Positions 1,385 through 30,065 of a stretch of 30,066 nucleotides of DNA are shown here, in pieces. This stretch comes from Chloroflexota bacterium. Its GTDB lineage: Bacteria; Chloroflexota; Anaerolineae; Anaerolineales; Villigracilaceae. Below the pieces are notes generated by a model. It was not told the DNA's origin. It did not search any database and saw only the letters and a list, made by a program, of their open reading frames with translations. Both the position numbers and the translations under genes were made by a program. The stretch's first letter is position 1. The number at the start of each line of letters is the position of its first letter. The stretch covers positions 1 through 30,066 of the forward strand of contig JAPLGV010000409.1 of assembly GCA_026389975.1 (NCBI GenBank), in the 5' to 3' direction.

Positions 1385-1453
1385 GGTAGTCCCTGTTCCA
1401 GCGAGGTAGTCCCGGTTCCCGCGGAAGCCCCGGTTCCCGCACGGGGCACGGGG
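1385..1453 (+). repeat. Tandem cluster of GTAG-type REP-like units (~20-nt period)
   Basis: ggtagtccctgttccagcga / ggtagtcccggttcccgcgg / aagccccggttcccgcacggggcacgggg. The same motif occurs at 1801-1822 and, inverted, at 29652-29700. Confidence 0.8.
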
Positions 1454-1542
1454 TTGTCTATTTTGCGCAAACACGACAATCCTACTTCGGACCCAGAAGG
1501 TAACAGGGCTTTCACAAAGTCCATTGACAAACAAAAAAATAT

Positions 1543-1633
1543 TTCATTGCGAACCGCCGAAGGCGGTGAAGCAATCTCCCAGCCTACATGGGGACTGCTT
1601 CGTCGGGTATAAAACGCCCTCCTCGCATCAACA
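1543..1633. repeat. Long imperfect palindromic (cruciform) intergenic element of the TCATTGCGA...GAAGCAATCTC...TGCTTC...TCGCA type
   Basis: Nested stems: ttgcga...tcgca (outer), accgcc-gaa-ggcggt, and gaagcaatctccc...ggggactgcttc. It resembles a widespread REP/RPE-like repeat (recalled, not searched). Confidence 0.6.
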
Positions 1634-1675
1634 CTCCCTTTCTTGTGAACGCCCTGAAGATGGTAAATGTCAGGG

Positions 1676-1704
1676 TTGTCAACTAGTCCATTCGACTGTA
1701 TAAT
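1676..1704 (+). promoter_or_regulatory. Sigma70-type promoter of rpsA
   Basis: TTGTCA (1676-1681), 17-bp spacer, TATAAT (1699-1704), about 33 nt upstream of the ATG. Confidence 0.8.
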
Positions 1705-1737
1705 CTCCCTATCTTATTCACCGGAGTTTCTCACAAT

Positions 1738-3231
1738 ATGGAACAAAAAGACGCCCTTCTCGGGCAGGGGGTTGTGCCCGAGAGCAATCTACCCGCCGTA
1801 GTAGTCCCGGTTCCAGCACGGGACGACGACACTGACAACAATCATACCAACATGGAAACCCTCCTTGACCAGGAGGGCATGTCCTTGGATTTTCCCGAAC
1901 CCGGTGAAATCCGTACAGGAGTTGTCGCCAGCATTAGCCAGTCGCAAATCCTGGTCAGTGTTGGCGCGAAATCGGAAGGTGTGATCACTGGCCGCGAACT
2001 GGAAGCCATCCCGGCTGAAGAGCGCGCCGCACTGCAACTGGGCCAGGAGATCCTGGTCTATGTGTTGTCCGCTGAAGATTCCAGCGGGAATGTTGTCCTT
2101 TCATACACCCGCGCCCAGGAACAAATAGGCTGGGCCGAAGTCGAGAAGATGCTTGAAGAAGGCAGCTCTTTCGATGGCAAGATTGACGGCTTCAACAAAG
2201 GCGGCATTATCGTCCCCGTGTTTGGCCTGCGCGGATTCGTGCCTGCCTCGCAGCTGGGCATCTCCCGCCGCATGGCCGTCACCGGCGACACCCCGGACGC
2301 GCGTTATGCCAAAATGATTGGCGAGGCGATCACCGTCCGCGTAATCGAAGTGGACCGTAAGCGCCGCCGCCTGATTCTCTCCGAACGCGCCGCTTCCAGC
2401 GAGACCCGCCAGTCCATCAAAGAGCGCGTTATTGAATCGCTAAAAGAGGGCGAGGTTTACACCGGTAAAGTCACAAGCCTGGCTGATTTCGGCGCTTTCG
2501 TCAATGTCAACGGTGCCGATGGCCTGGTGCACCTGTCCGAGATCTCCTGGGAACGCGTCCAGCACCCCTCCGAGGTGCTTGAGGTAGGCCAGGAAGTGCA
2601 AGTCAAGATCATCAACATTGACCGCGACAAAAAGCGCATCGGCCTGTCCATCCGCGCCCTGCAGAACGACCCCTGGCAGAGCAAGGTGGACAAATTCAAA
2701 GTCGGCCAATTGGTAGAAGGTATCATCACCCGCCTGACCAAATTTGGTGCTTTTGCCCGTCTGGAGGGTGACCTGGAAGGCTTGATCCACATCTCCGAGA
2801 TTAGCGAGAATCGCATCGAGCATCCCAAGGAAGCCGGTCTGCATGATGGCAGTGTTGTCACGCTGCGCATCATCCGCATTGACCCCGACCAGCGCCGTAT
2901 CGGCTTGAGCCTGCGCAAGGTCGACTCGGGTGCTTACAAAGACCTCGACCTGAAACAGATTGACCTCGAAGGCGTCAACCTGGAACTGGTAAACGACAAG
3001 CCCTCCAAAAACGAGGAAGCTCCCAAAGACGAGGAAGCCCCCAAAGACGAGGAAGCCCCCAAGGAAAAGGAAGCTCCCAAAGACGAGGAAGCCCCCCAAG
3101 ACAAGGAAGCTCCCAAGGAAAAGGAAGACCCCAAAGCCAAGAAAGCTCCCAAGGAAAAGGAAGCCCCCAAAACCAAGAAAGCTCCCAAGGACAAGGAAGC
3201 TCCCAAAGACGAGGAAGCCCCCAACGAGTAG
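1738..3231 (+). CDS. rpsA: 30S ribosomal protein S1 (four S1 domains plus low-complexity charged tail)
   Basis: Four S1 repeats (e.g. GKVTSLADFGAFVNV..DGLVHLSEISW and FGAFARLEGDLEGLIHISEIS). GGAG lies upstream of 1738; ATG 1852 is an alternative start. Confidence 0.95.
   Translation: MEQKDALLGQGVVPESNLPAVVVPVPARDDDTDNNHTNMETLLDQEGMSLDFPEPGEIRTGVVASISQSQILVSVGAKSEGVITGRELEAIPAEERAALQLGQEILVYVLSAEDSSGNVVLSYTRAQEQIGWAEVEKMLEEGSSFDGKIDGFNKGGIIVPVFGLRGFVPASQLGISRRMAVTGDTPDARYAKMIGEAITVRVIEVDRKRRRLILSERAASSETRQSIKERVIESLKEGEVYTGKVTSLADFGAFVNVNGADGLVHLSEISWERVQHPSEVLEVGQEVQVKIINIDRDKKRIGLSIRALQNDPWQSKVDKFKVGQLVEGIITRLTKFGAFARLEGDLEGLIHISEISENRIEHPKEAGLHDGSVVTLRIIRIDPDQRRIGLSLRKVDSGAYKDLDLKQIDLEGVNLELVNDKPSKNEEAPKDEEAPKDEEAPKEKEAPKDEEAPQDKEAPKEKEDPKAKKAPKEKEAPKTKKAPKDKEAPKDEEAPNE
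1801..1827 (+). repeat. GTAG-type REP-like hairpin inside the rpsA 5' coding region
   Basis: gtagtcccg-gttccagca-cgggacgac, with stem GTCCCG/CGGGAC. Positions 1801-1822 are identical (22/22) to the reverse complement of 29660-29681. Confidence 0.8.
3007..3222 (+). repeat. 12 x 18-nt coding tandem repeat (KDEEAP-like hexapeptide) in the RpsA tail
   Basis: KNEEAP KDEEAP KDEEAP KEKEAP KDEEAP QDKEAP KEKEDP KAKKAP KEKEAP KTKKAP KDKEAP KDEEAP; DNA unit approximately aaagacgaggaagc(t/c)ccc. Confidence 0.95.
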
Positions 3232-3238
3232 GAAAGAG

Positions 3239-3269
3239 AAACCCGGTTTCTTCCAGAGACCGGGTTTTT
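3239..3269 (+). terminator. Intrinsic terminator-like hairpin after rpsA
   Basis: aaacccggtttc-ttcca-gagaccgggttt followed by a short T run, just after the stop codon. Confidence 0.75.
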
Positions 3270-3277
3270 GAAATGCC

Positions 3278-4357
3278 ATGCTCCCCCTCATCGTAGACGC
3301 CCACGAAGATATTGCCTACAACATCCTGAACTTCGGGCGGGACTATACCCGCTCCGCTGCCGAAACGCGCCGCCTCGAACACGAGAGCGGTTCGGAGACC
3401 CCCGAACACAACGGCGGCTGGCCCGATTATCAGCGCGGGCGTGTGGCCGTCGTCTTCAGCACCCTGTTCGTCACGCCCATCTGCCGCAGGACCGGCGAGT
3501 GGGACAAACAGGCCTATGCAGATTTCGATCAGGCTCATCGTCTTTACCGCACCCAACTGGATGCTTATCACAAACTGGCGGACGACCACCCCGACCATTT
3601 CCGTCTCATCGCTTCACGCGCGGACCTGGAAACTGTCCTGACCCATTGGGCCGATTCCAAGGCTGAAAGCCATCCCGTCGGCCTTGTGCCGTTGATGGAA
3701 GGAGCTGAGGGTGTGCGCACCCCGTCCGAACTGGACGAGTGGTGGGAGTGGGGCGTGCGGGTCATCGGCCCGGCCTGGGCCGGCACTCGCTTCTGTGGTG
3801 GCACGCGGGACCCGGGACCGCTCACCGATGAAGGCCGCCTCCTGCTCAAGGCAATGGCAGACATCGGGTTCACGCTCGACCTGAGTCACATGGACGAACT
3901 GTCGGCGCGGCAGGCCCTCGACCTGTATCCCGGTCCCATTATCGCCAGCCATGCCAACGCTGCCGCGCTCGTGCCCGGCTACGACGGGAACCGTCTGCTG
4001 CGGGACGATGTCATCCAGGGCATTCTCGAACGGGACGGAATCATTGGCGTGGTACCGTTCTGCAGGTTCCTGACCTTCGAATGGAAATTTGGCGACCCGC
4101 GTGACAGCATTACGCTCGAAACGCTGGCCGCGCATGTGGACCGTATCTGCCAGATGGCCGGGGATGCCCGGCACGTGGGTCTGGGCAGCGACTTCGACGG
4201 CGGCTTCGGCCTGTCCGCCGTGCCTGCCGGGGTGGATACGATTGCCGACCTGCAGAAAATCGGCCCCATTCTGGTGGCGAAAGGGTATAATGACGAGCAG
4301 GTCGCGGCGGTTCTGGGGAAGAACTGGTTGCGCCATCTCCAGACATTCTTGCCATGA
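3278..4357 (+). CDS. Membrane dipeptidase family (peptidase M19)
   Basis: IVDAHED, LMEGAEG, DLSHM, ASHANA and VGLGSDFDGG motifs. Confidence 0.9.
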   Translation: MLPLIVDAHEDIAYNILNFGRDYTRSAAETRRLEHESGSETPEHNGGWPDYQRGRVAVVFSTLFVTPICRRTGEWDKQAYADFDQAHRLYRTQLDAYHKLADDHPDHFRLIASRADLETVLTHWADSKAESHPVGLVPLMEGAEGVRTPSELDEWWEWGVRVIGPAWAGTRFCGGTRDPGPLTDEGRLLLKAMADIGFTLDLSHMDELSARQALDLYPGPIIASHANAAALVPGYDGNRLLRDDVIQGILERDGIIGVVPFCRFLTFEWKFGDPRDSITLETLAAHVDRICQMAGDARHVGLGSDFDGGFGLSAVPAGVDTIADLQKIGPILVAKGYNDEQVAAVLGKNWLRHLQTFLP

Positions 4358-4839
4358 CAACTCCTGACAAACCATCTCCATCCCACAATACTTCTCCTGA
4401 AGGTAATCCCTCGCGGGTGCGCGTCCGCTTTGGGCTGCTGTTGACATTATTCGGCCTGCTCGTTTTTCTGGTTGGCGCCCGCCCGGCACTCTTTGGCCTG
4501 GACCGCAGTCCGGTGGTCGGGTTTGTGCAGATCGCGGTCTTCCTGGTGGGGCTGGCAATTGTCTGCATCGGCGGGTACATCGGCTTGATGTCCTTCTGGA
4601 GAAACGGCGAACGTACCATCGCCGCAGACATCGGTTCGCGGCTGGTCGCGACCGGGTATGTGGTGGCCGTTTTCTCCGGCATGGCGGATATGTTCGGCTT
4701 TGGCACGCGGGTGCCGCCGCTAGTTCCGTTCTTTGGCCGCTGGCAGGCAACCGGGGTGCAGATTGGCGAGGTGCTGATTACGATTGGGTTCTTGTTATTG
4801 ATCCCAATTTATTGGCGAAAGGAAACGAAAGAAAAATGA
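4354..4839 (+). CDS. Hypothetical integral membrane protein (about 4 TM segments)
   Basis: ATGA overlap with the dipeptidase stop codon, several hydrophobic segments, host-like codon usage. Confidence 0.75.
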   Translation: MTTPDKPSPSHNTSPEGNPSRVRVRFGLLLTLFGLLVFLVGARPALFGLDRSPVVGFVQIAVFLVGLAIVCIGGYIGLMSFWRNGERTIAADIGSRLVATGYVVAVFSGMADMFGFGTRVPPLVPFFGRWQATGVQIGEVLITIGFLLLIPIYWRKETKEK

Positions 4840-4840
4840 G

Positions 4841-4864
4841 AAACGCCCCTTTCGGGGTGTTTTC
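4841..4864 (+). terminator. Intrinsic terminator
   Basis: aaacgcccc-tttc-ggggtgttt then tt, immediately after TGA. The single non-Watson-Crick pair is G:U on the + strand. Confidence 0.75.
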
Positions 4865-4969
4865 AATTCCTGATATTTCATATTCTTTACAATCTACGAA
4901 TTTACTTGACTCCCACCAGCACCGCTCGGACTGATTTTCACGGAATTTGCAGGTTTCTGGGAATCGATA

Positions 4970-5046
4970 TGGAAATTCGAATAACATTCCCAATGGGGAT
5001 TTTGGTTTTAAAAAGAAAGACCACCTTGCGGCGGTTTTCGTGCCCC
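4970..5046 (-). repeat. Degenerate copy of the tRNA-Glu-derived unit (att-like left boundary)
   Basis: 4970-5011 matches 27234-27275 at 34/42 positions ungapped. Similarity continues through accacct...ggtttt...gtgcccc, in the same orientation as the right copies. Confidence 0.8.
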
Positions 5047-5238
5047 TGTTGAGCACACCCGTATTGATATCCAGCACGGCTGCCCCAGCTTCGACCTGGG
5101 CAAGGGCATCTTGACGCACTATTTCGAAGTAGCCCTCCTGTAAGGCAGCATAAACCACTTTACAGCAAGTTGGATTAATGCGCTTTCCAATGATAACCGT
5201 GGGTCGATTACGTCGGATTGAAACTTATTTGTTCTCAT
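5047..5238 (-). pseudogene. 5' remnant of a pterin-binding (MeTr/AcsE/MetH-pterin-domain) methyltransferase
   Basis: One frame reads RPTVIIGKRINPTCCKVVYAALQEGYFEIVRQDALAQVEAGAAVLDINTG, matching the family pattern IIGERINPTG...A..QVEAGA..LD.N.G. There is an in-frame stop at 5225-5227, the ATG at 5238 is out of frame, and homology ends at the att-like repeat. Confidence 0.8.
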
Positions 5239-5382
5239 AGGTTAGCGTTGTTTCTTTTACTATCTTGCCTAATTTGTTGGGGATTTAAATGGTGATTTTA
5301 TAAAGAATACAAAAGGTTGGTAAGTTTTCTGGGCGTGCCTGACATGTTATGATACGCGGAACAAGAAATTATACCGAATCAG

Positions 5383-6012
5383 TTAATCGATCAGGGATTT
5401 TGCTAATGTCACAGCTTGGCCTGCATCTGGTGCAAAGCCATCCGCCCCGATCTTTTTGGCATATTCAGCTGTAACAGGAGCACCGCCTATAATTATCTTG
5501 ATGCGATCATGTAATCCAGCTTCTTCAATCGCCTTGATGGTGCTTTCCATACTAGGCATCGTAGTGGTCAACAAAGCGGAGAGTCCGAGGATATCTACTC
5601 CGTCGTGAATAGCTGCAACAAACTTTTCAGGAGCTACATCTACTCCCAAATCCACAACCTCGAAGCCAGCGCCTTCCAACATCATAGAGACCAGGTTTTT
5701 CCCGATGTCGTGCAGATCACCTTTTACTGTGCCTATTACCACTTTCCCTACAGGTTCAACTCCAGCTTCGACCAACAAGGGTTTCAGGATTTCCAGGCCA
5801 GCCTGCATAGCACGGGCTGCAATCAACATTTCTGGGACATAATAATCCCCTTCTTCAAAGAGACGTCCAACTTCTCCCATCGCGGCAATTAGGCCGGTTT
5901 GGAGAATGTCTGATGCAGCTACGCCAGCAGAAAGCGCAGCTCGGACCTTTTCTAAAGTCACTTCCGTGTCGCCATTTAGTACGGCTTGATAGATATCTTC
6001 CAGTTGGCTCAT
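5383..6012 (-). CDS. Corrinoid (B12-binding) methyl-carrier protein, MttC/MtbC/MtaC-like
   Basis: GTVKGDLHDIGKNLV (DxHxxG), SALLTTTM and IIIGGAP motifs, N-terminal cap domain, RBS GAGGTG. Confidence 0.95.
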   Translation of the reverse strand: MSQLEDIYQAVLNGDTEVTLEKVRAALSAGVAASDILQTGLIAAMGEVGRLFEEGDYYVPEMLIAARAMQAGLEILKPLLVEAGVEPVGKVVIGTVKGDLHDIGKNLVSMMLEGAGFEVVDLGVDVAPEKFVAAIHDGVDILGLSALLTTTMPSMESTIKAIEEAGLHDRIKIIIGGAPVTAEYAKKIGADGFAPDAGQAVTLAKSLID

Positions 6013-6021
6013 AGATCACCT

Positions 6022-7107
6022 CTATTCAGTACCTTCAATAATATTATTCCCTGCAAGGGGTTTTGCTTTCTCGGGCACGTGCAGTTGGCACAAAATATTC
6101 AACTCATCAAATACTGTCCATTCTTCAATAATTTTCCCAGAATGAACTTTTGCCTGCGTTATCCCCACAATTTTCACAGGCTTCCCGCTGGGCTCTCCGT
6201 AGATACCATAACCCGTATGGGTTCCTTGAAATGTCCATCTCAAGGAAGTACGATATCCTATTTCATCATCGCCTAAAGCACAGAAGTGGTCGAAATGCAT
6301 CTGACCATCTGGGAAACAAGCCAACCAATCAATGGCAAACTGGATAATATCATCATGCCCAAATAGCTCACGACCAGAGGCCGAATGACTGTGTATGGTT
6401 GAAAGGTATGCATCGATAAAACAATTGAACATCCGCCGATTCCAGGCGTTATGCCATGCGCGCTTGATAAAATCTTCGATATCAAAGCCATTCGACTCTT
6501 TCGGGGGCAGCTCGGGGGTCAACTTTTGTTCGACTGTATTTTCCTGTTCTGCAATGACATATTTTTCAGGTTGCATGGCTACGAGCCTGGCGACAAATTC
6601 ACGCTCATCGAGGCCGATTTGTCGAATAATGTTAAGATCGTCTCGCACCAGCCATTCTTCGATGATCTTGTTTTCTTTGACGACACAGTCTGCAATAACG
6701 CGATACTTCAGCATCTTCCCTGTTGGAGCACCATACAAACTAAAGCCCAAGTGGTGAGCGGTGCTCTGTATGCGATGTGAAGAATAAAAACCATCTTCAT
6801 CGTTCCCAGCCCAAATCACATCTTCGGGAAAGAGCCTGCGGTCTGGAAAGAAGGACAATTGCTGAACCGTATTTGCTAAAACTGATTTGGCACCAACAGT
6901 ATCTCCGCTGGATGTGTGAATTACAGCATCCTCTGAATAATGCGTATTGATCAACCCAATTTGCTTTTCTTCCCAGATCTTGTAGGTACACCGGATGATG
7001 TATGCGACAATATCCATATAATCTTCGTCAAAGCCGCGCATGCTCTGTGGACCGGGCGAAAGTCTTGCTAAAACATCATCATAGGGAGTTCTGGATATTG
7101 TTTTCAT
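6022..7107 (-). CDS. Two-domain SnoaL/NTF2-like 'ester cyclase' family protein
   Basis: Two repeats ending in ...KIIEEW..., with G.P(T/S)GK strands; ATGA overlap with the upstream gene. Confidence 0.75.
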   Translation of the reverse strand: MKTISRTPYDDVLARLSPGPQSMRGFDEDYMDIVAYIIRCTYKIWEEKQIGLINTHYSEDAVIHTSSGDTVGAKSVLANTVQQLSFFPDRRLFPEDVIWAGNDEDGFYSSHRIQSTAHHLGFSLYGAPTGKMLKYRVIADCVVKENKIIEEWLVRDDLNIIRQIGLDEREFVARLVAMQPEKYVIAEQENTVEQKLTPELPPKESNGFDIEDFIKRAWHNAWNRRMFNCFIDAYLSTIHSHSASGRELFGHDDIIQFAIDWLACFPDGQMHFDHFCALGDDEIGYRTSLRWTFQGTHTGYGIYGEPSGKPVKIVGITQAKVHSGKIIEEWTVFDELNILCQLHVPEKAKPLAGNNIIEGTE

Positions 7108-8153
7108 CGGCTCGACTTCCTCTGCTCAATTTGCTCAAACATACGATCAAAGAGATTGATGCCCAATTGCATGAAAATATCGATCAGGTCGATCGGCACC
7201 CAGTTCTGTACCAGGGTATCACATTCGCGCCTGTACCAGTCAAAGTCACGGATGGTCATCAATTTCCCAGTTGCGGGAACATCCAAATATTGTCCTCGAT
7301 TTACTGAGAACACTTTATCCCAAATGCCCAAGGAAGCATATTTGCCTTCCGCAAGAATTTCGCCATTTTCAATCCCGATACTGCGCGCCTTTCCAGGCGG
7401 GGTTGTCATGCCGCGGTCAGGAAAAGCCTTTAACCAGGGTCGTTGGTGGAAATCTTCGAATTCCTCCAGGCTGTGGCACGAGCCGATCCCCGTCGGACCG
7501 TACCAGTGCATCTTGGGATGCCAGTACTTATCCATCTCCATCGTTCGCAGGTTCTTGCCATCGAAGCGCATCATGCCCTGGAGCATGGCGTAAACCTGTT
7601 GCCTTGTTTTTAGTGTTTCAAGTGGATCCTGCGCGGTTAGAAGAACGCCATCTCCCGTGGTCGGGCTGAGCACCTTGCCTCCCTCCGCTCCCCGTGCAGG
7701 GGGGAGCACCTGGAAACCGGCCTGCCGCATCACGGAGAGCACATCCAGGATCAGGTAGTTTTCAACGATCATTCCATCTTCGACGCGATAATGCTGGCCG
7801 AAGTGGATATTCGTTTTCTCTCCAGTTGCGGGGATCCCCAACCAATCTTGAGCAAATGTACCAGTGAGATATCCGCATGCCGACACCCAGCATTCTCCAC
7901 AGCACTCGCTGCCCAGAAAAATGTCGCATTTTCGTTTTAGATCCGGGAAGGAGCGATACAATGGCTGCCAATATCCAGAGATGACTGCATCCACCCCTTT
8001 CAACTCATTGATGGGTTGGGGGCCAAACCAGGCGATATCTTTATGCATCTTGGTTTTGACAAGCTTCTCGATGTTGTCAAATCCAACATAATTCATTTTT
8101 TGCCAAAAATCCCAAACAATTTCTTTGTTCTTCTGGTTTAGATTATCAGTCAT
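7104..8153 (-). CDS. Two-domain SnoaL/NTF2-like 'ester cyclase' family protein
   Basis: GTFAQDWLGIPATGE, WYGPTGIG, FEDFHQRPWLKAFPD and VPATGK...NWVPID motifs; close paralog of 10504-11571. Confidence 0.8.
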   Translation of the reverse strand: MTDNLNQKNKEIVWDFWQKMNYVGFDNIEKLVKTKMHKDIAWFGPQPINELKGVDAVISGYWQPLYRSFPDLKRKCDIFLGSECCGECWVSACGYLTGTFAQDWLGIPATGEKTNIHFGQHYRVEDGMIVENYLILDVLSVMRQAGFQVLPPARGAEGGKVLSPTTGDGVLLTAQDPLETLKTRQQVYAMLQGMMRFDGKNLRTMEMDKYWHPKMHWYGPTGIGSCHSLEEFEDFHQRPWLKAFPDRGMTTPPGKARSIGIENGEILAEGKYASLGIWDKVFSVNRGQYLDVPATGKLMTIRDFDWYRRECDTLVQNWVPIDLIDIFMQLGINLFDRMFEQIEQRKSSR

Positions 8154-8185
8154 TATTGCCTCTGTTTCCTCTTGATCAAGATCTT

Positions 8186-9298
8186 TTAGCCTATTACCAG
8201 CCAGCTACTCACGCTGGTGGGAAGATGTTGGCGAAATTGATGACGCATACGGCCAAAAATATCCACCCCCATTTGCAGCAACAGATGCGGGATGTCGAAG
8301 GGCACCCAATTTTCAACGATCGTTTCATCATCGCAGCGGTAAAAATCCATCACCCGCATAGACACCCGCTTGCCAGTAGCCGGCATGCCAAGAAAACCAT
8401 TACCTGTATGGGTAGCTTGCAAATAGCCCCACCCGCCGGTCACTACATAGTGTCCATCGCCAATGCGGATGAAATGACCAATATCCGAACCTTTTCGATC
8501 CGGGAAAGCATTCAGGAATGGGATCTGGTGATGGTCTTCAAATCCCTTCAATCCCCGGGTGGTCCCAATTCCTGCCGCTCCATACCACATGAAATTTGGA
8601 TGCCAGTGCTTGACCATTTCCATTTCATCCAGGATTTCGCGTCTGGGCAGCTTGCCGCTGTAATTACCAAGCGCAGCGTGCATTCTGAGCACGCGTTCAA
8701 TGCAGCCCTTCGAAATTTCGCTGTCCTGAGGCGTAAGAACCACTCCACCATGTGTCATGGGATGTAGCCAGCGCATCTCCCGACCCAGACTGGGAGCGAT
8801 CGGCCAGTAACCAGCCTGGCGCATCAGGTCAAGAAAGTCGATGAACACATGACTGGTCGCAATTTTTCCATCCCGTAGCTCATGTCCTTCAGCATACCGC
8901 ACAGCCACTACCCCATGGGTCGCCGGAATGCCGAGCCAGTCGTTTTCGAATGTGCCAACATAGTGACCAAGGCAACCGATCCAATTCGTGTCCTGGTAAA
9001 GTCCTCCGGCTACAATATCATCACGCCGTTCAACATCTGGAATGGCGTTTCGAAGAGGTTTCCAAATCTGTTTCCCAACTGCTTCAAGGCCAGTCACTCT
9101 ATTTATAGGATGGGTCACGTTCACATTGGAATCGACGTGGTAACTGGCATGAATTGCATCACCTAATTCAACCAATGGTGCGTTGACCAATTGCTGCATG
9201 ATGCCTATGACGCGCTGCTTATTAGCGATGTTTTCTACCTGATCAATTGGCTGAAATTTAAAGGCCTTCACCCTATAACTATCATTTTCAATACTCAT
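8186..9298 (-). CDS. Two-domain SnoaL/NTF2-like 'ester cyclase' family protein
   Basis: GTFENDWLGIPAT, WYGAAGIG, FEDHHQIPFLNAFPD and MPATGKRV...ENWV motifs. ATG 9298 has GGAG 8 nt upstream. Confidence 0.8.
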   Translation of the reverse strand: MSIENDSYRVKAFKFQPIDQVENIANKQRVIGIMQQLVNAPLVELGDAIHASYHVDSNVNVTHPINRVTGLEAVGKQIWKPLRNAIPDVERRDDIVAGGLYQDTNWIGCLGHYVGTFENDWLGIPATHGVVAVRYAEGHELRDGKIATSHVFIDFLDLMRQAGYWPIAPSLGREMRWLHPMTHGGVVLTPQDSEISKGCIERVLRMHAALGNYSGKLPRREILDEMEMVKHWHPNFMWYGAAGIGTTRGLKGFEDHHQIPFLNAFPDRKGSDIGHFIRIGDGHYVVTGGWGYLQATHTGNGFLGMPATGKRVSMRVMDFYRCDDETIVENWVPFDIPHLLLQMGVDIFGRMRHQFRQHLPTSVSSWLVIG

Positions 9299-9369
9299 AA
9301 ACAAAGCTCCATCTCTTGTTTTAGCTGTCCTTCAAATTAGCTCGAAGGCGAGACTCAAAACGACCAAGG

Positions 9370-9879: not shown

Positions 9880-9881
9880 CC

Positions 9882-12616: not shown

Positions 12617-12617
12617 A

Positions 12618-22080: not shown

Positions 22081-22091
22081 AGCAGCAAATC

Positions 22092-22123: not shown

Positions 22124-22154
22124 TCCATTCTATAAACCATAGAGAGGATGAATT

Positions 22155-22931
22155 ATGAAGCTAAAAGACAAGGTATCTATTATAACCGGTGCAACCATGG
22201 GAATCGGCCTGGCTTGCGCCCAGGAATTTGCCGTCGAAGGTTCCAAAGTTGTTCTGGCTGGCCGCAGTCAGGAATTGGGAGAAAAAGCCGCTGTAGATAT
22301 TCGAGCAAGTGGTGGTGATGCGATTTTCATCCCCTGTGATGTTAGTAAGAAAGATGAAATTCAAAATTTGGTTCAAAAAACCGTGGAACACTATGGCCGG
22401 ATCGATGTGGTGGTCAATAACGCTGGGACGAATCACAGTGCCAACTTCTTCGATACCACCGAAGAGGATTGGGACCGGGTCATGAGTGTGGATTTAAAAG
22501 CCACATTCTTGCTCAGCCAGGCCGCGGCCAGAGTGATGGTGGATAAGAAGATTCCCGGCGTGGTCATCAACATGACCTCGGTCATGGCCGTTTTGGCTTT
22601 GGGGGACCAGGTGCCATATTGCGCAGCCAAAGGCGGGGCCAACCAACTCACAAAATCAATGGCAATAGCTCTCGCCGGTTATGGGATTCGTGTCAATGCC
22701 ATCGGTCCCGGCCCGGTACTGACTGATCTCATGAAGCGAGTGGTAAGTAGCAAAGAAAAAGAAACTGTACTCCTCGATCGAATGCCACTTGGGAGAATTG
22801 CCGAATGCCGTGAAATTGCAACCGTAGCCGTGTTTTTGGCCAGCGACGATTCCAGCTTCATCACCGGTCAATGTATTTACCCAGATGGCGGTCGGATGAT
22901 CCAGGCATTTCCAAGAAAGCAGGAAAAGTGA
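22155..22931 (+). CDS. SDR-family NAD(P)-dependent oxidoreductase
   Basis: TGATMGIG, NNAG, YCAAK and VNAIGPG motifs. Confidence 0.95.
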   Translation: MKLKDKVSIITGATMGIGLACAQEFAVEGSKVVLAGRSQELGEKAAVDIRASGGDAIFIPCDVSKKDEIQNLVQKTVEHYGRIDVVVNNAGTNHSANFFDTTEEDWDRVMSVDLKATFLLSQAAARVMVDKKIPGVVINMTSVMAVLALGDQVPYCAAKGGANQLTKSMAIALAGYGIRVNAIGPGPVLTDLMKRVVSSKEKETVLLDRMPLGRIAECREIATVAVFLASDDSSFITGQCIYPDGGRMIQAFPRKQEK

Positions 22932-22935
22932 TCTA

Positions 22936-23373
22936 ATGCCACGCGTGACACTGACCGAACAGCAAAATTATGAGTTTAGCCATTCCCTGACGGTTCGGCC
23001 GACTGATATTAATTACGCTGGCCATTTGGGAAATGAAGCTTTGTTGGGGTTGGTGCACGAAGCGCGTGCGTATTTCTTAAAGGAATTGAATTTCAACACG
23101 ATTGTCGGGAACGAACAGCGCATTGGGCTGCTCATTGCAGATTTGGCTGTCAACTTCAAAGCTGAAGCATTTGCCCATGATCAGCTCACGGTGGATTGTC
23201 AAATTGATGAATTACAGGAAAAATCATTTCGCCTTTTTCATCGAATTCGCTGCGGTGAGCAGGTGATTACTTTGGTCGAGACTGGTGTGGTTGCCTATGA
23301 TTACCAATCTGGCCATGTGGTTCCGCTGCCTGATGATTTTTTAAATGGGCTACAGAATTTTCGTAGAAGATGA
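22936..23373 (+). CDS. Hotdog-fold thioesterase (4HBT/FcbC-like)
   Basis: VRPTDINYAGHLGN...HEAR motif. Confidence 0.85.
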   Translation: MPRVTLTEQQNYEFSHSLTVRPTDINYAGHLGNEALLGLVHEARAYFLKELNFNTIVGNEQRIGLLIADLAVNFKAEAFAHDQLTVDCQIDELQEKSFRLFHRIRCGEQVITLVETGVVAYDYQSGHVVPLPDDFLNGLQNFRRR

Positions 23374-23394
23374 TTTTTATTATCGGAGAAATAG

Positions 23395-24816
23395 ATGAAT
23401 AATCCCAAAGTTGCATTGATGACTTTTGGTGACGCTCGTGACCATGAGTGGAACAACTTGTTCCGCGGTCTGACCGAACCAAGACATAAACAGATCATCG
23501 AATATTTCAATAAGTTGCCGATCGAGCTCCACGCATTAGAAGAAGTTGCCCGCACGAAAGATCAAATTGATGCACAGGTAGATGCGCTAAAAACTGCCGG
23601 GATTGCCGCGTTTATTGTCCATCTTCCTTGTTGGACCGCGCCAAATTTGGTTTTGTGCGGTGTTCAACGGATGGGATTGCCAACCATCTTGGTGTCCAAC
23701 CGGCATCCTGGAACCCATGGTACGGTCGGATTGCTGGGGGCCGGGGGGGCACTGGATCAGATTGGCTACCCCCATCTTCGCGTGCGAGAAGGTTTTGACA
23801 CCCCTGCCTTGGGCGAGAAAGTTTTACCATTTACCCGGGCAGCTTCAGCGGTGGCTCAGTTACGCGGTCAAGTATTTGGCATGTTTGGTGGACGCTCCCT
23901 GGGAATCGATACCGGTACCATTGACACAATGCAATGGCGGAGGCAGTTTGGTGTGGATGTCGAACATATCGACCAGTTGGAAATCATCCGCCGGGCGGAA
24001 CTCATCGAAGATGAACCCACTGGAAAAATGGTCGCCTGGCTGGAAGAAAAAATGGGGTCCGTGGATTACGATGGCTCGAAACTGACACCTGAGAAGCTCG
24101 GGTTCCAATCCCGCTGTTACCTGGCTACTCGGCAGATCATTGAAGAGTTAGGGCTGGATTTCGTGGCGATCAAGTGTATGCCCGACCTAGCCAATCACTA
24201 TGTTCCCCAATGTATCTCGGCAGCACTGCTGCCTGGACCTTATGATTCGCAGGGTCATAAAAAGCCAGTCCCGATGGCTTGTGAGACTGATGGGGATGGG
24301 GCACTTACGATGCAAATATTAGGTTTGGTTTCGGGGGGTCAGCCAACTTTGTTTGGCGATTTGAGCTATCTAGATGATGAAAACCTGACCATTTACATTC
24401 CCAACTGTGGTGCCATGTGCAGTTGGTTCGCGGGTCGATCCTCCAATCTGGAAGAAAACCTGTCAAAGATCCAACTGCGGCCTTCCTTCCGGCCCGGCGG
24501 AGGCGCGACGGCCTACTTCAAGGCTGCTCCTGGCCCGGTAACTCTGGCGCGCCTTTCCCGTCGAGAGGGGAAATATGTAATGACCATCTTCACCGGTGAT
24601 GCCATTGAACCATCTCCCGAGGCCTATGAAGAATTTGTGAAAGCGCGTGGCAGCCATCAACTCCCGACAATGTTTGTTCGCGCGAACCTGAACTTCGACG
24701 AACTTATCGCTGAATTTGGATCCAACCATATTTCTGGCACCGCAGGTCTGTACGTCGAAGAATTAGTGCATGTCTGCCATTTACTCGATATTCAGCCCAT
24801 TGTCCTCGCGAACTGA
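23395..24816 (+). CDS. L-fucose/L-arabinose isomerase family protein
   Basis: GGRSLGIDTG, AIKCMPDL, ACETDGDGALTM, NCGA, GPVTLARL and NHI motifs. Confidence 0.88.
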   Translation: MNNPKVALMTFGDARDHEWNNLFRGLTEPRHKQIIEYFNKLPIELHALEEVARTKDQIDAQVDALKTAGIAAFIVHLPCWTAPNLVLCGVQRMGLPTILVSNRHPGTHGTVGLLGAGGALDQIGYPHLRVREGFDTPALGEKVLPFTRAASAVAQLRGQVFGMFGGRSLGIDTGTIDTMQWRRQFGVDVEHIDQLEIIRRAELIEDEPTGKMVAWLEEKMGSVDYDGSKLTPEKLGFQSRCYLATRQIIEELGLDFVAIKCMPDLANHYVPQCISAALLPGPYDSQGHKKPVPMACETDGDGALTMQILGLVSGGQPTLFGDLSYLDDENLTIYIPNCGAMCSWFAGRSSNLEENLSKIQLRPSFRPGGGATAYFKAAPGPVTLARLSRREGKYVMTIFTGDAIEPSPEAYEEFVKARGSHQLPTMFVRANLNFDELIAEFGSNHISGTAGLYVEELVHVCHLLDIQPIVLAN

Positions 24817-24828
24817 GAGGTATCTTTA

Positions 24829-25971
24829 ATGGATCGTAGAACAGCATTTACTGCCACTCTCAACCACCAAGAGCCGGATATGGTTTTAGTGGATTACGGG
24901 AAGCATATAGGTTCTTTTCATGTTAAGGCCTATGAACGGCTCCTTAAACACCTGGGAATTCAGTCTGCGATAACTATTCTCGACCGGATGGCGCAAAATG
25001 TGGTTTTGGATGAGTCAGTGTGTCGGATGCTGGGAATCGATTTCCGGTGGATCGTACCCAATTGGGTGGGGGTCCGGGATATCGAGATCGATGGAGAGCC
25101 TGGGTATATCGATATGTGGCAGACTCCCCATAAATGGACAGAGGTCGGTCAATATTACGCTATCCACACATCCCCCTTCAATCAAAAAACACTCAGCCGC
25201 GAGGATATCGAGAATTTTGATTGGCCTGATCCCAACAATCCAAACATGTTTTCAGGTTTAAAAGAAAAAGCTCAGGATTGGTACGAAAATACCGATTATA
25301 TTGTTGGCGCGGATGGGATCAAAGTCGGAATTTTACAAACCGCATCGCAGCTGCGTGGCTATGACAAATTATTCATGGACTTTGCGCTCAATCCGGAGAT
25401 CACCCATATTTTCTTGGACAGAATTTCATCTGTTATCAATGAAATGTACCGCCATTATCTAGAAGTCGTTGGCCCCTATGTCCAGGTTGTGGTCATTACA
25501 GATGATCAGGGTACTCAAAACTCATTGATGATATCGCCTGCAATGTTCCGGGAATTTATCAAGCCGCGTCTGAAATCCTTGATCGACACCATCAAGGCAA
25601 CCGCTGACGTTAAAGTGTTGATGCACTGCGATGGCGCCATCCTGAAGATTATTCCCGACTTGATCGAGATTGGTGTCGATATTCTTAACCCCATCCAGAC
25701 GGTTGTTCAAGGGCTTGAAGATACTAAAGCGCTCAAAGAACAGTTCGGGGATCAGATTTGCTTCCATGGAGGCATTGACGTGCAACAGGTGCTGCCCAAT
25801 GCAAGCCCGGAAGAAGTACGTCAGGAAGTCGAAAGACGAAAATGTGATCTTGGGCGTAGGGGAGGCTACATTCTTGCTCCGTGCCATAATATCAATGTAG
25901 ATATCCCGGTTGAAAATGTGATCGCCTTATTCGATGCTGTGCATGATTTGGGTTGTTACCCGTTGGGTTGA
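24829..25971 (+). CDS. Uroporphyrinogen decarboxylase superfamily protein (MtaA/CmuA-like methyltransferase candidate)
   Basis: DDQGTQNSLMISP, MHCDG, LNPIQT, FHGGIDVQ and GGYILAPCHNI motifs, including likely Zn ligands H-x-C and the C-terminal C. Confidence 0.9.
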   Translation: MDRRTAFTATLNHQEPDMVLVDYGKHIGSFHVKAYERLLKHLGIQSAITILDRMAQNVVLDESVCRMLGIDFRWIVPNWVGVRDIEIDGEPGYIDMWQTPHKWTEVGQYYAIHTSPFNQKTLSREDIENFDWPDPNNPNMFSGLKEKAQDWYENTDYIVGADGIKVGILQTASQLRGYDKLFMDFALNPEITHIFLDRISSVINEMYRHYLEVVGPYVQVVVITDDQGTQNSLMISPAMFREFIKPRLKSLIDTIKATADVKVLMHCDGAILKIIPDLIEIGVDILNPIQTVVQGLEDTKALKEQFGDQICFHGGIDVQQVLPNASPEEVRQEVERRKCDLGRRGGYILAPCHNINVDIPVENVIALFDAVHDLGCYPLG

Positions 25972-26015
25972 TAATAAATCTATTTTGGTTTTGTAACTAT
26001 ACTAAGGAGAAAATA

Positions 26016-26792
26016 ATGTTTGAAAACATACTAAAAACTAAACTAAAAGCAGGCAAGAAAACAATTGGAGCATGGGCACAACTTGCCAGTCCGTTTACGG
26101 CTGAGATTCTTAGCTCGGCAGGATTTGATTGGTTGATGCTAGATATGGAACATGCGCCAGGTGATATTCTTACGCTGATAAGTCAGGTGCAGGCTATGAA
26201 AGGCTCCAATTCAGTACCCCTGGTGCGCGCTCCCTGGAATGATTTTGTTGCCATCAAACGGATTCTGGATGCTGGCGCCCAGGGTGTATTAATCCCTTAT
26301 GTAAATTCTCGGACAGAGACTGAGCAGGCGGTAAAGGCCTGTAAATATCCCCTGGAGGGCATCCGCGGGGTGGCCGGGAGCCCACGCGCGGCTGGTTATG
26401 GGCGGAACATCGGTAATTACCTTCAGAGAGCCAATGATGAGATCTTCATCATGATAGCGATAGAAACCCCGGAAGCGGCCTCGAACCTGGATGAGATCCT
26501 TCAAGTGCAAGGATTGAACGGCGTTTTCATCGGTCCGATGGATCTGGCTTCCTCGATGGGATTTTCTGGTGATTCCAGCAGACCGGAAGTCCAGTCTGTC
26601 ATTCAGGATATTGAAAAGAAAGTGCTTTCATCTGGAAAAGTGTTGGCAACTACCACGGGTACCTGGGAGCAAGCCCAAACCTTGTTCGAGCGTGGATATC
26701 AAATGCTTATGCTGATGGCTGATGGGGTCTCGCTGGCAGCCTTGGCAACCCAAAAAGTTAACCAATTCCGTGAACAATATCCGAGTGGATAA
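26016..26792 (+). CDS. HpcH/HpaI class II pyruvate aldolase family
   Basis: FDWLMLDMEH, LVRAPWND, RGVAG, IETP and FIGPMDL motifs. ATG 26016 has AAGGAG upstream. Confidence 0.93.
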   Translation: MFENILKTKLKAGKKTIGAWAQLASPFTAEILSSAGFDWLMLDMEHAPGDILTLISQVQAMKGSNSVPLVRAPWNDFVAIKRILDAGAQGVLIPYVNSRTETEQAVKACKYPLEGIRGVAGSPRAAGYGRNIGNYLQRANDEIFIMIAIETPEAASNLDEILQVQGLNGVFIGPMDLASSMGFSGDSSRPEVQSVIQDIEKKVLSSGKVLATTTGTWEQAQTLFERGYQMLMLMADGVSLAALATQKVNQFREQYPSG

Positions 26793-26960
26793 TCTATTGT
26801 GTTCCCAGATGCATTGGAGGTTCTTGAAGTATTCGGATACTATTTATACCCAAATATTCTATTATCTGAGGGATAATTACCCTTGCAGCCCTTTTATAGC
26901 AGACCCAAAACGAGCCGGCTTCTTGGGTCGGTGCCGCTGACGATTGTGGTGGATAACAAG

Positions 26961-26987
26961 AACGCGCCCTTTCAGCGCGTTTATTTT
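26961..26987 (+). terminator. Possible intrinsic terminator of the rightward operon
   Basis: aacgcgc-cctttca-gcgcgtt followed by tatttt. Confidence 0.45.
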
Positions 26988-27150
26988 AGCTCAAAAGGAG
27001 CCCGAAGGCCTGCAGGACGGCCTGAGTAGCCTGAATATGAGCCCAAGAGGTACCCTGAAAGACAAAACCGGCGTATAGCAGCTTGCGGCCGTAATCATCC
27101 AACGAGGTAATCAGGCTCCACTTCTCTTCGGCAAAAGGCGAACATCGATG
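26986..27150 (-). pseudogene. Internal fragment of a DDE (rve/IS481-like) transposase
   Basis: HRCSPFAEEKWSLITSLDDYGRKLLYAGF...TSWAHIQA..AVLQAFGL resembles the first-Asp region pattern W.LI..LDDYSR.LLYA (recalled from memory). Confidence 0.6.
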
Positions 27151-27152
27151 CG

Positions 27153-27328
27153 TGCGAATATCACTCCCCAGTGGGTGTTTCAGTTTTAACAAAAAAACCA
27201 CCTGCCTGGGTGGTTTTTTTCACTGTGCCCCCGTGGAGATGCGAATAGCATCCCCAATGGGGACTCCAGTTTTAACAAAAAAACCACCTGCCTGGGTGGT
27301 TTTTTTTTTACTGTGCCCCCGTGGAGAT
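27153..27328 (-). repeat. Tandem ~87-bp tRNA-Glu-derived units, each with a bidirectional terminator
   Basis: tgcgaata occurs at 27153 and 27240. cagttttaacaaaaaaaccacctgcctgggtggttttttt..ctgtgcccccgtggagat occurs at 27181-27240 and 27267-27328. Confidence 0.9.
27274..27309 (-). terminator. tRNA-Glu terminator (second copy at ~27188-27220)
   Basis: A-tract, ACCACC stem, 6-nt loop, GGTGGT, T-tract. Confidence 0.85.
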
Positions 27329-27386
27329 TCGAACTCCAGTTTTAGCCTTGAAAGGGCCACGTCCTGGTCCACTAGACGATGGGGGC
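27314..27386 (-). tRNA. tRNA-Glu (anticodon TTC), CCA not encoded
   Basis: GCCCCCATCGTCTAGTGGACCAGGACGTGGCCCTTTCAAGGCTAAAACTGGAGTTCGAATCTCCACGGGGGCA folds into a cloverleaf with a TTCGAAT T-loop. Confidence 0.95.
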
Positions 27387-27410
27387 TTGTTCAAAGGGCA
27401 GAGCGGCAGG

Positions 27411-27439
27411 ATTTTACCATCCCCTCCCGTACCGGTCAA
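27411..27439 (-). promoter_or_regulatory. tRNA promoter
   Basis: TTGACC, 17-bp spacer, TAAAAT, with an extended TGn and a GC-rich discriminator (CCTGCCGC). Confidence 0.8.
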
Positions 27440-27460
27440 GCAATTGATCAAACCTGTTTC

Positions 27461-27727
27461 TTATCCGTAATCAGCGCCAGCAAATCCACTTGCCGCGGTT
27501 GAAAAGGATGGCGGACTTTCAATGCGCAGTTGCGGGATCAGAATGGCATTCAGCGTGGCATTGTAGAGCGGGACAAAGTCGCCGATGCCTTCCACCATGG
27601 TGGTGGCAAAGTCAAAGCGCCCGGTCCACTCCAACGTCCCTTCCAGCTCGTAGACTTGTGTGGTGACCCGAAGGGTATATTCGGCTAGTTTCTGATAGCC
27701 GCCGCGCGCCAGCGCTTGCGGGCCCAT
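27461..27727 (-). CDS. Hypothetical protein (start and C-terminal frame uncertain)
   Basis: Protein-like core YELEGTLEWTGRFDF...FVPLYNATLNAILIP with host codon usage, downstream of the zinc-finger gene. Confidence 0.5.
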   Translation of the reverse strand: MGPQALARGGYQKLAEYTLRVTTQVYELEGTLEWTGRFDFATTMVEGIGDFVPLYNATLNAILIPQLRIESPPSFSTAASGFAGADYG

Positions 27728-27741
27728 ATCCTCGCGGCGGG

Positions 27742-28026
27742 TCAGTCTCGGATGGGGCGCGCTCCGTCACGTTTTTCCAGCGGGGGGCGCACTCTCCGCT
27801 TTGAGCCAGACGCTTTGCCCGTCTCCGGGTTGAGGATGGTAACCAGCCAGGAGATGGCACGCGCGTCGTACTCACGCCGTCCACAGACATCACATACCCA
27901 GGCCGGGAAGTTGGGGACGGTAACGAGTTCTTCGTCGAGCCAGGTGAAGTAGGTGATGTGCCGCATGTGCATCACCCCCGCCTGGCATTCAGTGCATTGG
28001 AATAAATCCTGGGGTTCGTCGGTCAT
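27742..28026 (-). CDS. YgiT-type zinc finger protein
   Basis: CTEC...[13 protein letters not shown] motif; ATGA overlap with deoC. Confidence 0.85.
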
Positions 28027-28778
28027 TGGGAACCTCTCAGGGACTCATTCAGGATAGCTACTCCCGCGCTCGACCCGATGCGATTCGCACCCGCGGCGAT
28101 CATCGCCAGCGCGTCCTTGCAGGTGCGGATTCCGCCCGCGGCTTTGACGCCGGTTCCGGGTCCGACCACGCGGCGCATCAGGTCCACATCTTCCACCGTC
28201 GCACCGCTAGGACCGAATCCGGTCGAGGTCTTGACAAAGTCCGCCCCGGCGGTCTGGGCCAGCAGGCAGGCCAGGATCTTCTCACGGCGGGTCAGCAAAG
28301 CAGCCTCAATGATCACCTTGACCCTGGCTCCGCGCTCATGGGCCTCCTGTGCCACGAACAGGATATCGTTCAACACCAGGCCGTAGGCCTCGCCCTTGAG
28401 CGCACCAATATTGATCACCATATCCACTTCGTCCGCACCGTTCTCGATCACGCGGCGCGCTTCGTAGACTTTATCCTCGGGCAGTATCGCACCGAGCGGG
28501 AAGGCGATAACCGCACACAGGCCCACGCCCGCATCTTTGAGCAGACCGCGAGCCAGCGGCACATAGACCGGGTTAACACAGACTGCGGCAAAATAGTACT
28601 GGCGGGCTTCCTCGCATAGTGTTTTGATCTGCCCGGCGGTCGCTTCCGGCTTGAGCAGGGTATGGTCAATCCAGGCAGCAATTTCCGCACCGACCGGCTT
28701 GGTCAACGGCCGAGGCGGGGCGGGGAGCTCCCGTTCGTAAGAATCGGCCAATATAAGAACTTCTCGCAAGGATTGCAT
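28023..28778 (-). CDS. deoC: Deoxyribose-phosphate aldolase
   Basis: [41 protein letters not shown] and RIGSS motifs. Confidence 0.96.
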
Positions 28779-28783
28779 GATAC

Positions 28784-29428
28784 CTACGGGGCGGCCAGAA
28801 CAGATTGGTGCGACTGGATGATCATAAAATCAGCAAAGGGCCAGTAGACCACCAGCGCCTTGCCGAGGATATTTTCTTCCGGCAGGAAGCCCCAGGCATG
28901 TGAATCTGCCGAGTTGTTGCGATTATCTCCCAGCACGAAGAGCTGGCCTTCAGGAACCGTCCATTCGTTAGAATAATCCGGGGGGGCAGCGATATAAGGT
29001 TCTATCAACGGGACATCGTTAATATAAACGGTCCCGTTGGCGATCCTGACCGTGTCGCCGGGCAGGCCAATAATACGTTTGATGTAATCTTCGTATTTGT
29101 CGTCGAAGCCGGGCAGGCCAAACAGGCGCTGCCAGAAAGGGGCATCGGGATACATCGGCGGGCGGAAAACGATAATATCGTCACGCTGGTAATCGCCCAA
29201 CCTGTAAGCCAGACGGCTGATCAGCACGTATTCGCCATTATTCAGGGTGGGAAGCATCGAATAACCTTCCACGCGCACACGGGCAGAAATGACATTGATC
29301 ACCAGGAAAAGGATGACCGCCAGTCCCACCGTCTCCAAGATTTCGCGCAGAAACTGCTTCCATCCCTGCCTGGCAGGTACGGCTTCCGGCGCAGGCTGGG
29401 TTTCATTTTCAGGGGAAAAATCAGTCAA
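28784..29428 (-). CDS. lepB: Signal peptidase I
   Basis: SMLPTL (Ser), [11 protein letters not shown] (Lys) and [11 protein letters not shown] motifs; TTG start with GGAGG. Confidence 0.95.
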
Positions 29429-29445
29429 TAAAGCCTCCGCAGAGG

Positions 29446-29454
29446 ATTATACCA
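29446..29454 (-). promoter_or_regulatory. Possible extended -10 promoter for lepB-deoC
   Basis: Minus strand TGGTATAAT just upstream of the GGAGG RBS; no recognisable -35. Confidence 0.45.
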
Positions 29455-29462
29455 TCTGCAAG

Positions 29463-30065
29463 TTAAACTTTCCCCCAGGCGAAATACGTTGGCACGTGGA
29501 GCACGCGCTCGCCCTGTTCCCAGGCCTGCTCATCCAATAACTTCATCCTGCTGACTTCCTGCGCTGGGACCCAGCCCGCCAAATCGGTCTCCAGCACCGC
29601 CCATTCCAAATTCCGTTCCGCGGGCGTGGGCAGACGCTCCCCGCCCCCGCGCCCCGTGCCCCGTGCTGGAACCGGGACTACCCCGCTGGAACCGGGACTA
29701 GCCCGCAGGGTTCCTGTTTCGATGGGCCGGAACCCCGCCTGTCGGAACAGGGTCGCCAGCCGGCTGCCCAGCCCCGGGTCCGCGCCGTGCCGCCGCAGGG
29801 ACTCGGCCTGCCAGCGTCCGAGCGGAGCAAGCGCATCGGGCTTATCCACGCGGGAGTCGTAGTCTGGTTCGGCCAGAGCCAGCACGGCGCCGCCGGGGCG
29901 GGTGACACGTTTCATTTCAAGCAGGGCCCGCAATGGGTCGCGTACCCACAGCAGGAGGAAGTGGCAAAAGGTAATATCAAAAACTCTGGAAGGATATGGC
30001 AGTCCCAGCGCATCCCCGCAGACGAGCGCCGCGGCCGGGATATGCCTGCGCGCCTCGGCGAGGCG
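29463..30065 (-). CDS. Class I SAM-dependent methyltransferase (5'-truncated by window edge)
   Basis: Frame is open to the window end: VCGDALGLPYPSRVFDITFCHFLLLWVRDPLRALLEMKRVTRPGG. Confidence 0.9.
   Translation of the reverse strand, partial: RLAEARRHIPAAALVCGDALGLPYPSRVFDITFCHFLLLWVRDPLRALLEMKRVTRPGGAVLALAEPDYDSRVDKPDALAPLGRWQAESLRRHGADPGLGSRLATLFRQAGFRPIETGTLRASPGSSGVVPVPARGTGRGGGERLPTPAERNLEWAVLETDLAGWVPAQEVSRMKLLDEQAWEQGERVLHVPTYFAWGKV
29652..29700 (-). repeat. Two tandem REP-like units inside the methyltransferase CDS
   Basis: Minus strand tagtcccggttccagcgggg-tagtcccggttccagcacggggcacgggg, encoding ASPGSSGVVPVPARGTG. Confidence 0.85.

Follow-up and report, generated by a model that had tools for sequence, protein, structure and literature searches.

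Short palindromic repeats inside bacterial genes have been described before. According to Di Nocera et al. (2013; PMC3733652), repetitive extragenic palindromic (REP) elements with a GTAG or CGTC tag occur within genes for tRNA synthetases, helicases and repair proteins, where they add 20-80 residues, or 43-82 residues as clusters. The same survey lists a GTAG family in the Chloroflexi, GTAG-23 of Thermomicrobium roseum, which is clustered and inserted in small palindromes, and reports that inverted dimers dominate, with head-to-tail dimers absent or rare. As explained by Bertels and Rainey (2011; PMC3116915), inverted REP doublets (REPINs) are replicated by a REP-associated tyrosine transposase (RAYT), encoded by a single-copy flanking gene. 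As summarised elsewhere (PMC10969869, PMC3733652), Rickettsia palindromic elements (RPEs; Ogata et al. 2000) are selfish palindromic DNA lying in frame in unrelated housekeeping genes, with RPE-1 being about 150 bp long and encoding one conserved peptide in one frame. Two further sources (PMC4390886, PMC2884548) describe the cyanobacterial small dispersed repeats SDR4-6 as mobile hairpin units of 21-27 nt that insert precisely at specific short sites, with no transposase known for them. Here, we analyse a window of 30,066 nt, which is the whole of contig C176 (JAPLGV010000409.1) in the metagenome-assembled genome (MAG) of an uncultured genus of Anaerolineales (Chloroflexota) from freshwater, soil, peat and groundwater, and a GTAG-tagged hairpin unit of 27 nt that is repeated in this window and throughout the genome.

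With a probability of roughly 80%, this unit is a non-autonomous, recently active and genus-restricted mini-element that would spread through the genome in steps of 27 nt (nine codons) and survives in the loops and linkers of proteins. This reading is carried by how many copies there are, where they lie in frame, which sites are empty in relatives, one nested gain and the loop location, each of which is shown below. SDRs are said, after Elhai et al. in 2008, to lie often inside other repeats and to be associated with heptamer repeats, and to our knowledge SDRs have not been reported to colonise genes densely and in frame. With SDRs the unit shares the 27-nt step, the precise insertion and the habit of nesting, here within its own loop as well as within a mosaic element, but the phylum is different, the sequence probably so too, and the likeness is one of descriptions. 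Like the REPs of Di Nocera (2013; PMC3733652), it has a GTAG tag, a short stem-loop and a high copy number, with single units and clusters inside genes, whereas its arrays are all head-to-tail, with no inverted pair. Like REPINs, it is a short, lineage-restricted hairpin repeat with population sizes that vary widely between related genomes; however, inverted doublets and a RAYT gene flanked by units were not found for it. As with RPEs, insertion is in frame in functional genes, tolerated as a peptide segment and absent from orthologues. In contrast to RPEs, with their single peptide and length of about 100-150 bp, the unit is 27 nt long, is read in five frames as five peptides, forms arrays and belongs to a free-living Chloroflexota genus. 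Intergenic mosaic elements of 150-250 nt also include it as one of several repeated modules, as in bacterial interspersed mosaic elements, although the latter consist of inverted REP pairs and are confined to extragenic DNA. While the behaviour as such is familiar from REPs and RPEs, its density and order in this genome are unusual. The novel features are the fixed 27-nt step, the exclusively head-to-tail arrays, the self-nesting at one internal site, the heptamer tails, the lack of a REPtron and an intragenic share of a quarter to a half.

Anatomy, copy number and turnover of the unit

The initial annotation had drawn attention to a 22-mer, GTAGTCCCGGTTCCAGCACGGG, occurring twice in the window and read in the same frame in two genes. 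Both copies are exact, at positions 1801-1822 (+) in rpsA and 29660-29681 (-) in a methyltransferase gene, and both read GTA GTC CCG GTT CCA GCA CGG (VVPVPAR). A third copy, with three mismatches, lies at 1424-1445, and shuffled sequence yields none. In the whole genome, a fragmented MAG (G000) of 3.09 Mb in 520 contigs with 56% GC and a completeness of 96.8%, 340 matches with at most three mismatches were found, of which 99 are exact, compared to 0 for the reversed control. A 12-mer core with at most one mismatch gave 494 matches, against 29 for its control. Grouping of these matches resulted in 286 arrays or loci with about 515 units and a total of ~13 kb, making the unit the most abundant repeat of this genome, so that the annotation's caveat of only a few copies existing does not apply.

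Based on 109 single units, the conserved span runs from -4 to +24 and consists of CGTG, GTAG and TCCCGGTTCCAGCACGGG, followed by R and C. The consensus is C-G-N-G, GTAG and then a hairpin TCCCG / 9-nt loop / CGGGR. Within the tag, G is conserved in 93%, T in 100%, A in 98% and G in 95% of these units, and variation is mostly found in the hairpin loop. The minimum-energy fold (-6.2 kcal/mol as DNA) has a 6-bp stem, GTCCCG/CGGGAC, and a 9-nt loop, both inside the published REP range (stem 5-13 bp, loop 2-20 nt). The tag beside the stem, the short stem-loop and the dispersed high-copy family are all features of GTAG REPs; no Rfam family matches the window between 1 and 5500. Within arrays, the spacing of units is 20 nt in 103 cases and 27 nt in 65 cases. 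Another module, 24 nt long, shares this stem but has a different loop; its 33 copies always occupy the same internal site of the unit.

The gene calls put 144 of the 286 arrays inside open reading frames (ORFs); of the others, 121 are intergenic and 21 straddle a gene end. The predominantly extragenic location of GTAG REPs is therefore not seen, although the family is still over-represented in spacers relative to the coding density. A stricter test demanded, on each side and in the same frame, no fewer than 60 open codons and a coding score above zero, with no assumption on the openness of the array itself; it was passed by 66 arrays (115 units) in 57 ORFs. The intragenic share of the loci thus lies between one quarter (strict) and one half (lenient), and about 2-4% of the predicted genes are affected. 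All five stop-free frames are used, with 18 and 8 arrays in the open sense frames and 18, 19 and 6 in the antisense frames. The resulting split of 26:43 agrees with the 2:3 proportion in which open frames occur, and the sense frame that reads TAG holds at most 2 arrays, compared to 26 in the other two. The largest sense arrays have 3 units, since one more 20-nt step would put TAG in frame, and antisense arrays reach up to 7. No strong bias was found in the orientation of units relative to neighbouring genes. This pattern is expected if insertion is blind to frame and strand and copies introducing a stop are subsequently lost, and it suggests that the units are translated. As the length is divisible by three and just one of the six frames contains a stop (the TAG of GTAG), copies in loops and linkers would survive and be translated as short disordered peptides, here VVPVPARG, GSPGSSTGR, PRAGTGTTT, PVLEPGLPR and PCWNRDYH.

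Pfam domains confirm that the hosts are real genes, among them PheT, a Ser/Thr kinase, a protein whose PPDK_N domain contains the insert, two helicases (MrfA-like DEAD and UvrD-like), an M3 peptidase interrupted by 53 residues and a histidine kinase with several arrays. The proposal, made from the window alone, that this lineage carries a repeat adding peptides to proteins is thus supported by hundreds of copies and 66-144 intragenic arrays, which are presumably translated.

The closest relative, G014, has DNA which is about 92-95% identical and carries 124 copies. Sites filled only in the window genome include PheT (+27 nt), a PPDK-like gene (+27), the M3 peptidase (+159), C166:15072 (+168), C166:15784 (+54) and C398:13201 (+27), i.e., gains of 27 nt or multiples of 3. 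At C398:8479, an entire array-bearing mosaic module is missing from G014, and the insertion at C398:13201 sits in a mosaic element at TTTA^CGCAGTACCC. The sites C166:4239, C398:2935, C398:14361 and C186:12276, as well as those in rpsA and the methyltransferase gene, are shared by both genomes. In filled/empty pairs, the junctions share at most 1-2 nt (C or CG), with no longer duplication. Two features found in miniature inverted-repeat transposable elements, terminal inverted repeats and a target-site duplication, are absent from the unit.

One gain is nested. At C398:11572, G014 has one unit and the window genome two, with the extra 27 nt located between ..CCAGC and ACGGG of the older unit, which explains why short units measure 20 nt (27 minus a heptamer) and why heptamers accumulate at the 3' side. 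Arrays probably grow in three ways. A new unit could enter an existing unit's loop, immediately 5' of CACGGG, giving 20-nt spacing and heptamers in the tail; it could join the end of a unit, giving 27-nt spacing; or units could be amplified in tandem. The long-read MAG G047 contains perfect 27-nt tandem arrays of up to 9.7 copies in genes for an M20-like peptidase and a PfkB-like kinase, indicating that tandem amplification occurs too. The length of multi-unit arrays equals 27n in 55% of those in genes and 25% of those between genes, where 7% is expected by chance; this partial fit suggests that the number of heptamers also drifts independently.

The PfkB-like kinase gene of G047 with 9.7 copies of the GTAG unit also holds an unrelated 27-nt tandem repeat of 9 copies, encoding HPMHSIREE, at L230 (G047:C2) 4590-4834. 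The mosaic elements, for which 37 anchors were found, are intergenic and 150-250 nt long, e.g., in C95 (500-1900), C353 and C289, and some form long hairpins. Their modules include TTTACTGCTTCTTGCATAAAT and TATTTACGCAGTACCCTGTAA, with about 75 copies each, and the 27-nt unit sits at TTTA^CGCAG in about a third of them. For the site TTTA^CGCAGTACCC, about 76 copies are empty and 34 are filled.

Possible routes of movement

Our best guess for the mover, put forward tentatively, is a hairpin-recognising single-strand HUH-type tyrosine transposase that would act in trans. Nearly the same likelihood is given to an enzyme-free or other route, of the kind suggested for cyanobacterial SDRs. Spread of this kind, without a dedicated transposase, would proceed through template switching, repair synthesis or recombination at CG/CACGGG microhomology, with replication slippage inside arrays, and is a possible, though not the leading, explanation. 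It accounts for the fact that no enzyme linked to the unit was found, that both junctions start with C, often CG, and that hot spots exist at the internal CACGGG of the unit and at the TTTA^ site of the mosaic element. The perfect 9.7-copy tandem array and the use of the same internal site by the 24-nt module with the same stem point in the same direction. However, gains at unrelated gene sites are precise additions of 27 nt with no longer homology to the target, and the insertions whose sequence was inspected retain the GTAG tag (or a one-base variant) together with the hairpin, as would a recognised substrate.

Several observations weigh against reading the unit as a mobile mini-element. The hairpin is not significantly more stable than shuffled sequences (z = -1.5), and its stem is invariant across units, so it offers no covariation signal. 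Filled/empty pairs reveal no common target motif beyond the C of the 3' junction, usually CG or CA. The gene calls come from a home-made dicodon-based caller, with a coding density of 83%, and translation of the inserts is deduced from their reading frames rather than observed. Finally, no transposase linked to the unit family was found. In the window genome, C471 (L035) carries at 290-1110 a canonical REPtron with a RAYT of 170 aa (NF047646, 139 bits), but the REP found on either side of this gene, GTAGGTCACGC-N5-GCGTGACCTAC, is a different one of low copy number, and unrelated inverted repeats surround a RAYT-like gene on C483 (74 bits). The unit is absent from both contigs. The presence of a RAYT does not track copy number either, as G014 shows none and G003, with 0 copies, has one. 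G047 and G048 hold only degenerate RAYT fragments, and among 80 unit-bearing metagenome contigs the sole RAYT-like gene lies 2 kb from the units.

These results bear directly on the reading as a canonical REP/REPIN family, moved by its own cognate RAYT which has been lost from the assembly. Tag, 6-bp stem and 9-nt loop do fall within the published REP range (PMC3733652), the genome does encode RAYTs, and the assembly comprises 520 contigs at 96.8% completeness. Nevertheless, no RAYT or IS200 gene flanked by the unit was found in the incomplete window assembly, across the genus including G014, or in the better-assembled G010, G047 and G048, nor was any RAYT gene so flanked in the 80 metagenome contigs. 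REPIN-like dimers are also lacking: none of the 286 arrays has a neighbour on the opposite strand within 150 nt, compared to 25 neighbours on the same strand, and the arrays are always head-to-tail. The absence of a unit-flanked RAYT and of inverted pairs does not support filing the unit as a RAYT-driven REP or REPIN, and we consider this explanation unlikely. The family has the anatomy of a GTAG REP and fails both REPIN-RAYT tests. Of the REP class proposed in the initial annotation, the tag and stem-loop therefore stand and the link to a RAYT does not; the RAYT gene flanked by the repeat, for which it had suggested a search, was found nowhere in these genomes and contigs.

Little weight is likewise given to a bolder idea, in which the unit would be a codon-phased mobile element with a mechanism other than that of a flanking RAYT. 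Its nine-codon length, five open frames and insertion into its own loop would then be adaptations to life in genes, and a family of 24- and 27-nt members would be continually creating and resizing disordered loops in 2-4% of the proteins. With regard to the mini-element itself, the lack of a linked RAYT and of inverted pairing, together with self-nesting, makes it a clean system for studying how repeats below 30 nt move.

Conserved proteins of ~530 aa, in which the N-terminus is receiver-like and an IS200-like Y1 domain lies at the C-terminus, are encoded by two paralogues per genus genome, in the window genome on C429 (L033) at 1201-2796 and on C215. One of the two is followed by a unit 9 nt after its stop codon, and in G014 a unit lies about 50 nt past the Y1-domain match of a similar gene. 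As mobilisers, these proteins were rejected, as they are core in every genus genome, including those free of the repeat. By eye, the HUH histidines are lost, which also counts against such a role.

Inserts in ribosomal protein S1 and a methyltransferase

The rpsA gene (1738..3231, +) encodes ribosomal protein S1 with four S1 domains. A single 27-nt unit (CGTA + 22-mer + A) lies in frame in its N-terminal extension at 1797..1823 (+) and encodes VVVPVPARD, residues 21-29, with the RpsA stretch at the insert reading ..NLPAVVVPVPARDDD... The initial annotation left open a start at 1852, which would place the unit in a 5' leader and make this copy non-coding. The METLL at 1852 does resemble the usual N-terminus of S1, and a strong Shine-Dalgarno sequence is absent before both ATGs. 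However, the 29-30 residues ahead of METLL (MEQNDALLGQG..PESN...) are conserved in frame in 28 genus genomes, with silent third-position changes and length differences of whole codons only, and in-frame stops occur immediately upstream of the first ATG. Based on this conserved extension and these stops, rpsA starts at 1738 and a non-coding copy is very improbable.

Only the window genome and G014 have the 9 additional residues in RpsA; at this point the gene is exactly 27 nt shorter in the other genus genomes. The alignment to orthologues proposed with the initial annotation thus gives a clear outcome, as proteins without the motif have no segment of the same length but fall short by exactly 9 aa (RpsA) or by 9 or 18 aa (methyltransferase). 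In G014 the rpsA unit is degenerate, with three changes that are all non-synonymous. The insert is absent from a species in which the best-matching S1 segment is 97% identical. Contigs of three independent studies, with one strain ~94% identical, carry the insert gap-free, which indicates that it is fixed in the lineage, as judged on assembled contigs, which do not reveal rare variants. At its C-terminus (window ~3040-3228), RpsA has a low-complexity tail with hexapeptide repeats of the KDEEAP/KEKEAP type, and the matches of genus orthologues to the RpsA of the window genome stop at varied points, from residue 416 to 497.

At the other end of the window, the C-terminal 200 codons of a class I S-adenosylmethionine (SAM)-dependent methyltransferase (29463..30065, -) contain a nested array of two units followed by a heptamer tail (29639..29701, -), which adds 54 nt (18 aa) relative to most orthologues. 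The gene runs on into contig C122, which joins the window end at 30065 via an identical overlap of 201 nt. Most orthologues have no insert, G007 and G010 have 9 additional residues, and the window genome and G014 have 18. In G010, the site is an exact 22-mer read as SPGSS. In the arrays of the window genome and G014, the first unit is read as SPGSS and the second as VVPVPAR, because the 20-nt spacing shifts the frame. A second, antisense array is located at C122 5463-5539, directly after SAM motif I, with 3 units in the window genome and 2 in G014. Altogether, about 45 of the roughly 290 residues of this methyltransferase are encoded by the repeat.

An AlphaFold2 model of the G014 methyltransferase (pLDDT 82, pTM 0.81) has only two segments with a pLDDT below 50, residues 55-63 and 203-221, which coincide with the two stretches encoded by the repeat and are both modelled as coil between secondary-structure elements. 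In the methyltransferase, the inserts are thus shown by the predicted structure to occupy loops, where they appear to be tolerated.

Could the repeated peptide be a selected protein motif, such as a linker or a recognition site, instead of a DNA-level element? With their high content of Pro, Gly, Thr and Ser, the peptides do resemble linkers. Still, the same DNA is used in five frames on both strands, 121 arrays are intergenic and all three changes of the rpsA copy in the comparison with G014 are non-synonymous, which leaves this explanation with hardly any probability. A tiny mobile repeat that adds, and goes on adding, 9-residue modules to essential proteins (S1, PheT, helicases, kinases), with filled/empty pairs at ~93% identity, makes this lineage a natural experiment on how proteins tolerate insertions in loops. 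From a practical perspective, in MAGs of Anaerolineales the units lengthen ORFs artificially, make start codons harder to call and interrupt assemblies.

Distribution among genomes and the recN-rpsA spacer

Copy number ranges from 0 to 340 across the genus, to which the family is restricted. At least one copy is present in 17 of the 24 sister genomes, with counts from 1 to 124, and two more genus genomes have 36 and 58 copies. In 16 other genera of the order, zero copies were found, and a class-wide scan of 300 genomes from 176 genera gave just two stray single matches. The exact 22-mer is also present in more than 120 metagenome contigs of the Joint Genome Institute (JGI), and no exact copy was found in the viral contigs searched. 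An assembly or binning artefact, as a fragmented MAG with 30 of the 340 matches within 100 nt of a contig end might suggest, is practically excluded by the same units recurring at orthologous sites of independent genomes, including a long-read MAG, and in contigs of three further studies besides those of JGI.

In the window, rpsA is preceded by the 3' part of recN (3..1349, +; TIGR00634, 377 bits), a gene cut by the contig end. The spacer between both genes contains an array of three degenerate units followed by two CACGGGG heptamers (1383..1453, +). Its tags at 1386, 1406 and 1424 are spaced 20 and 18 nt apart and the CACGGGGCACGGGG tail ends at 1453, in agreement with the degenerate tandem copies noted there initially. 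The recN-rpsA spacer of G014 holds units as well. A contig from a lake-water metatranscriptome matches the window from 1342 to 1492, i.e., the end of recN and the array, with zero differences, which hints only weakly at transcription of the array, as carry-over of DNA is possible. Other dispersed repeats of ~95 nt, unrelated to the 22-mer and with dozens of matches in G014, are located at C166 14218-14376 and 9018-9112.

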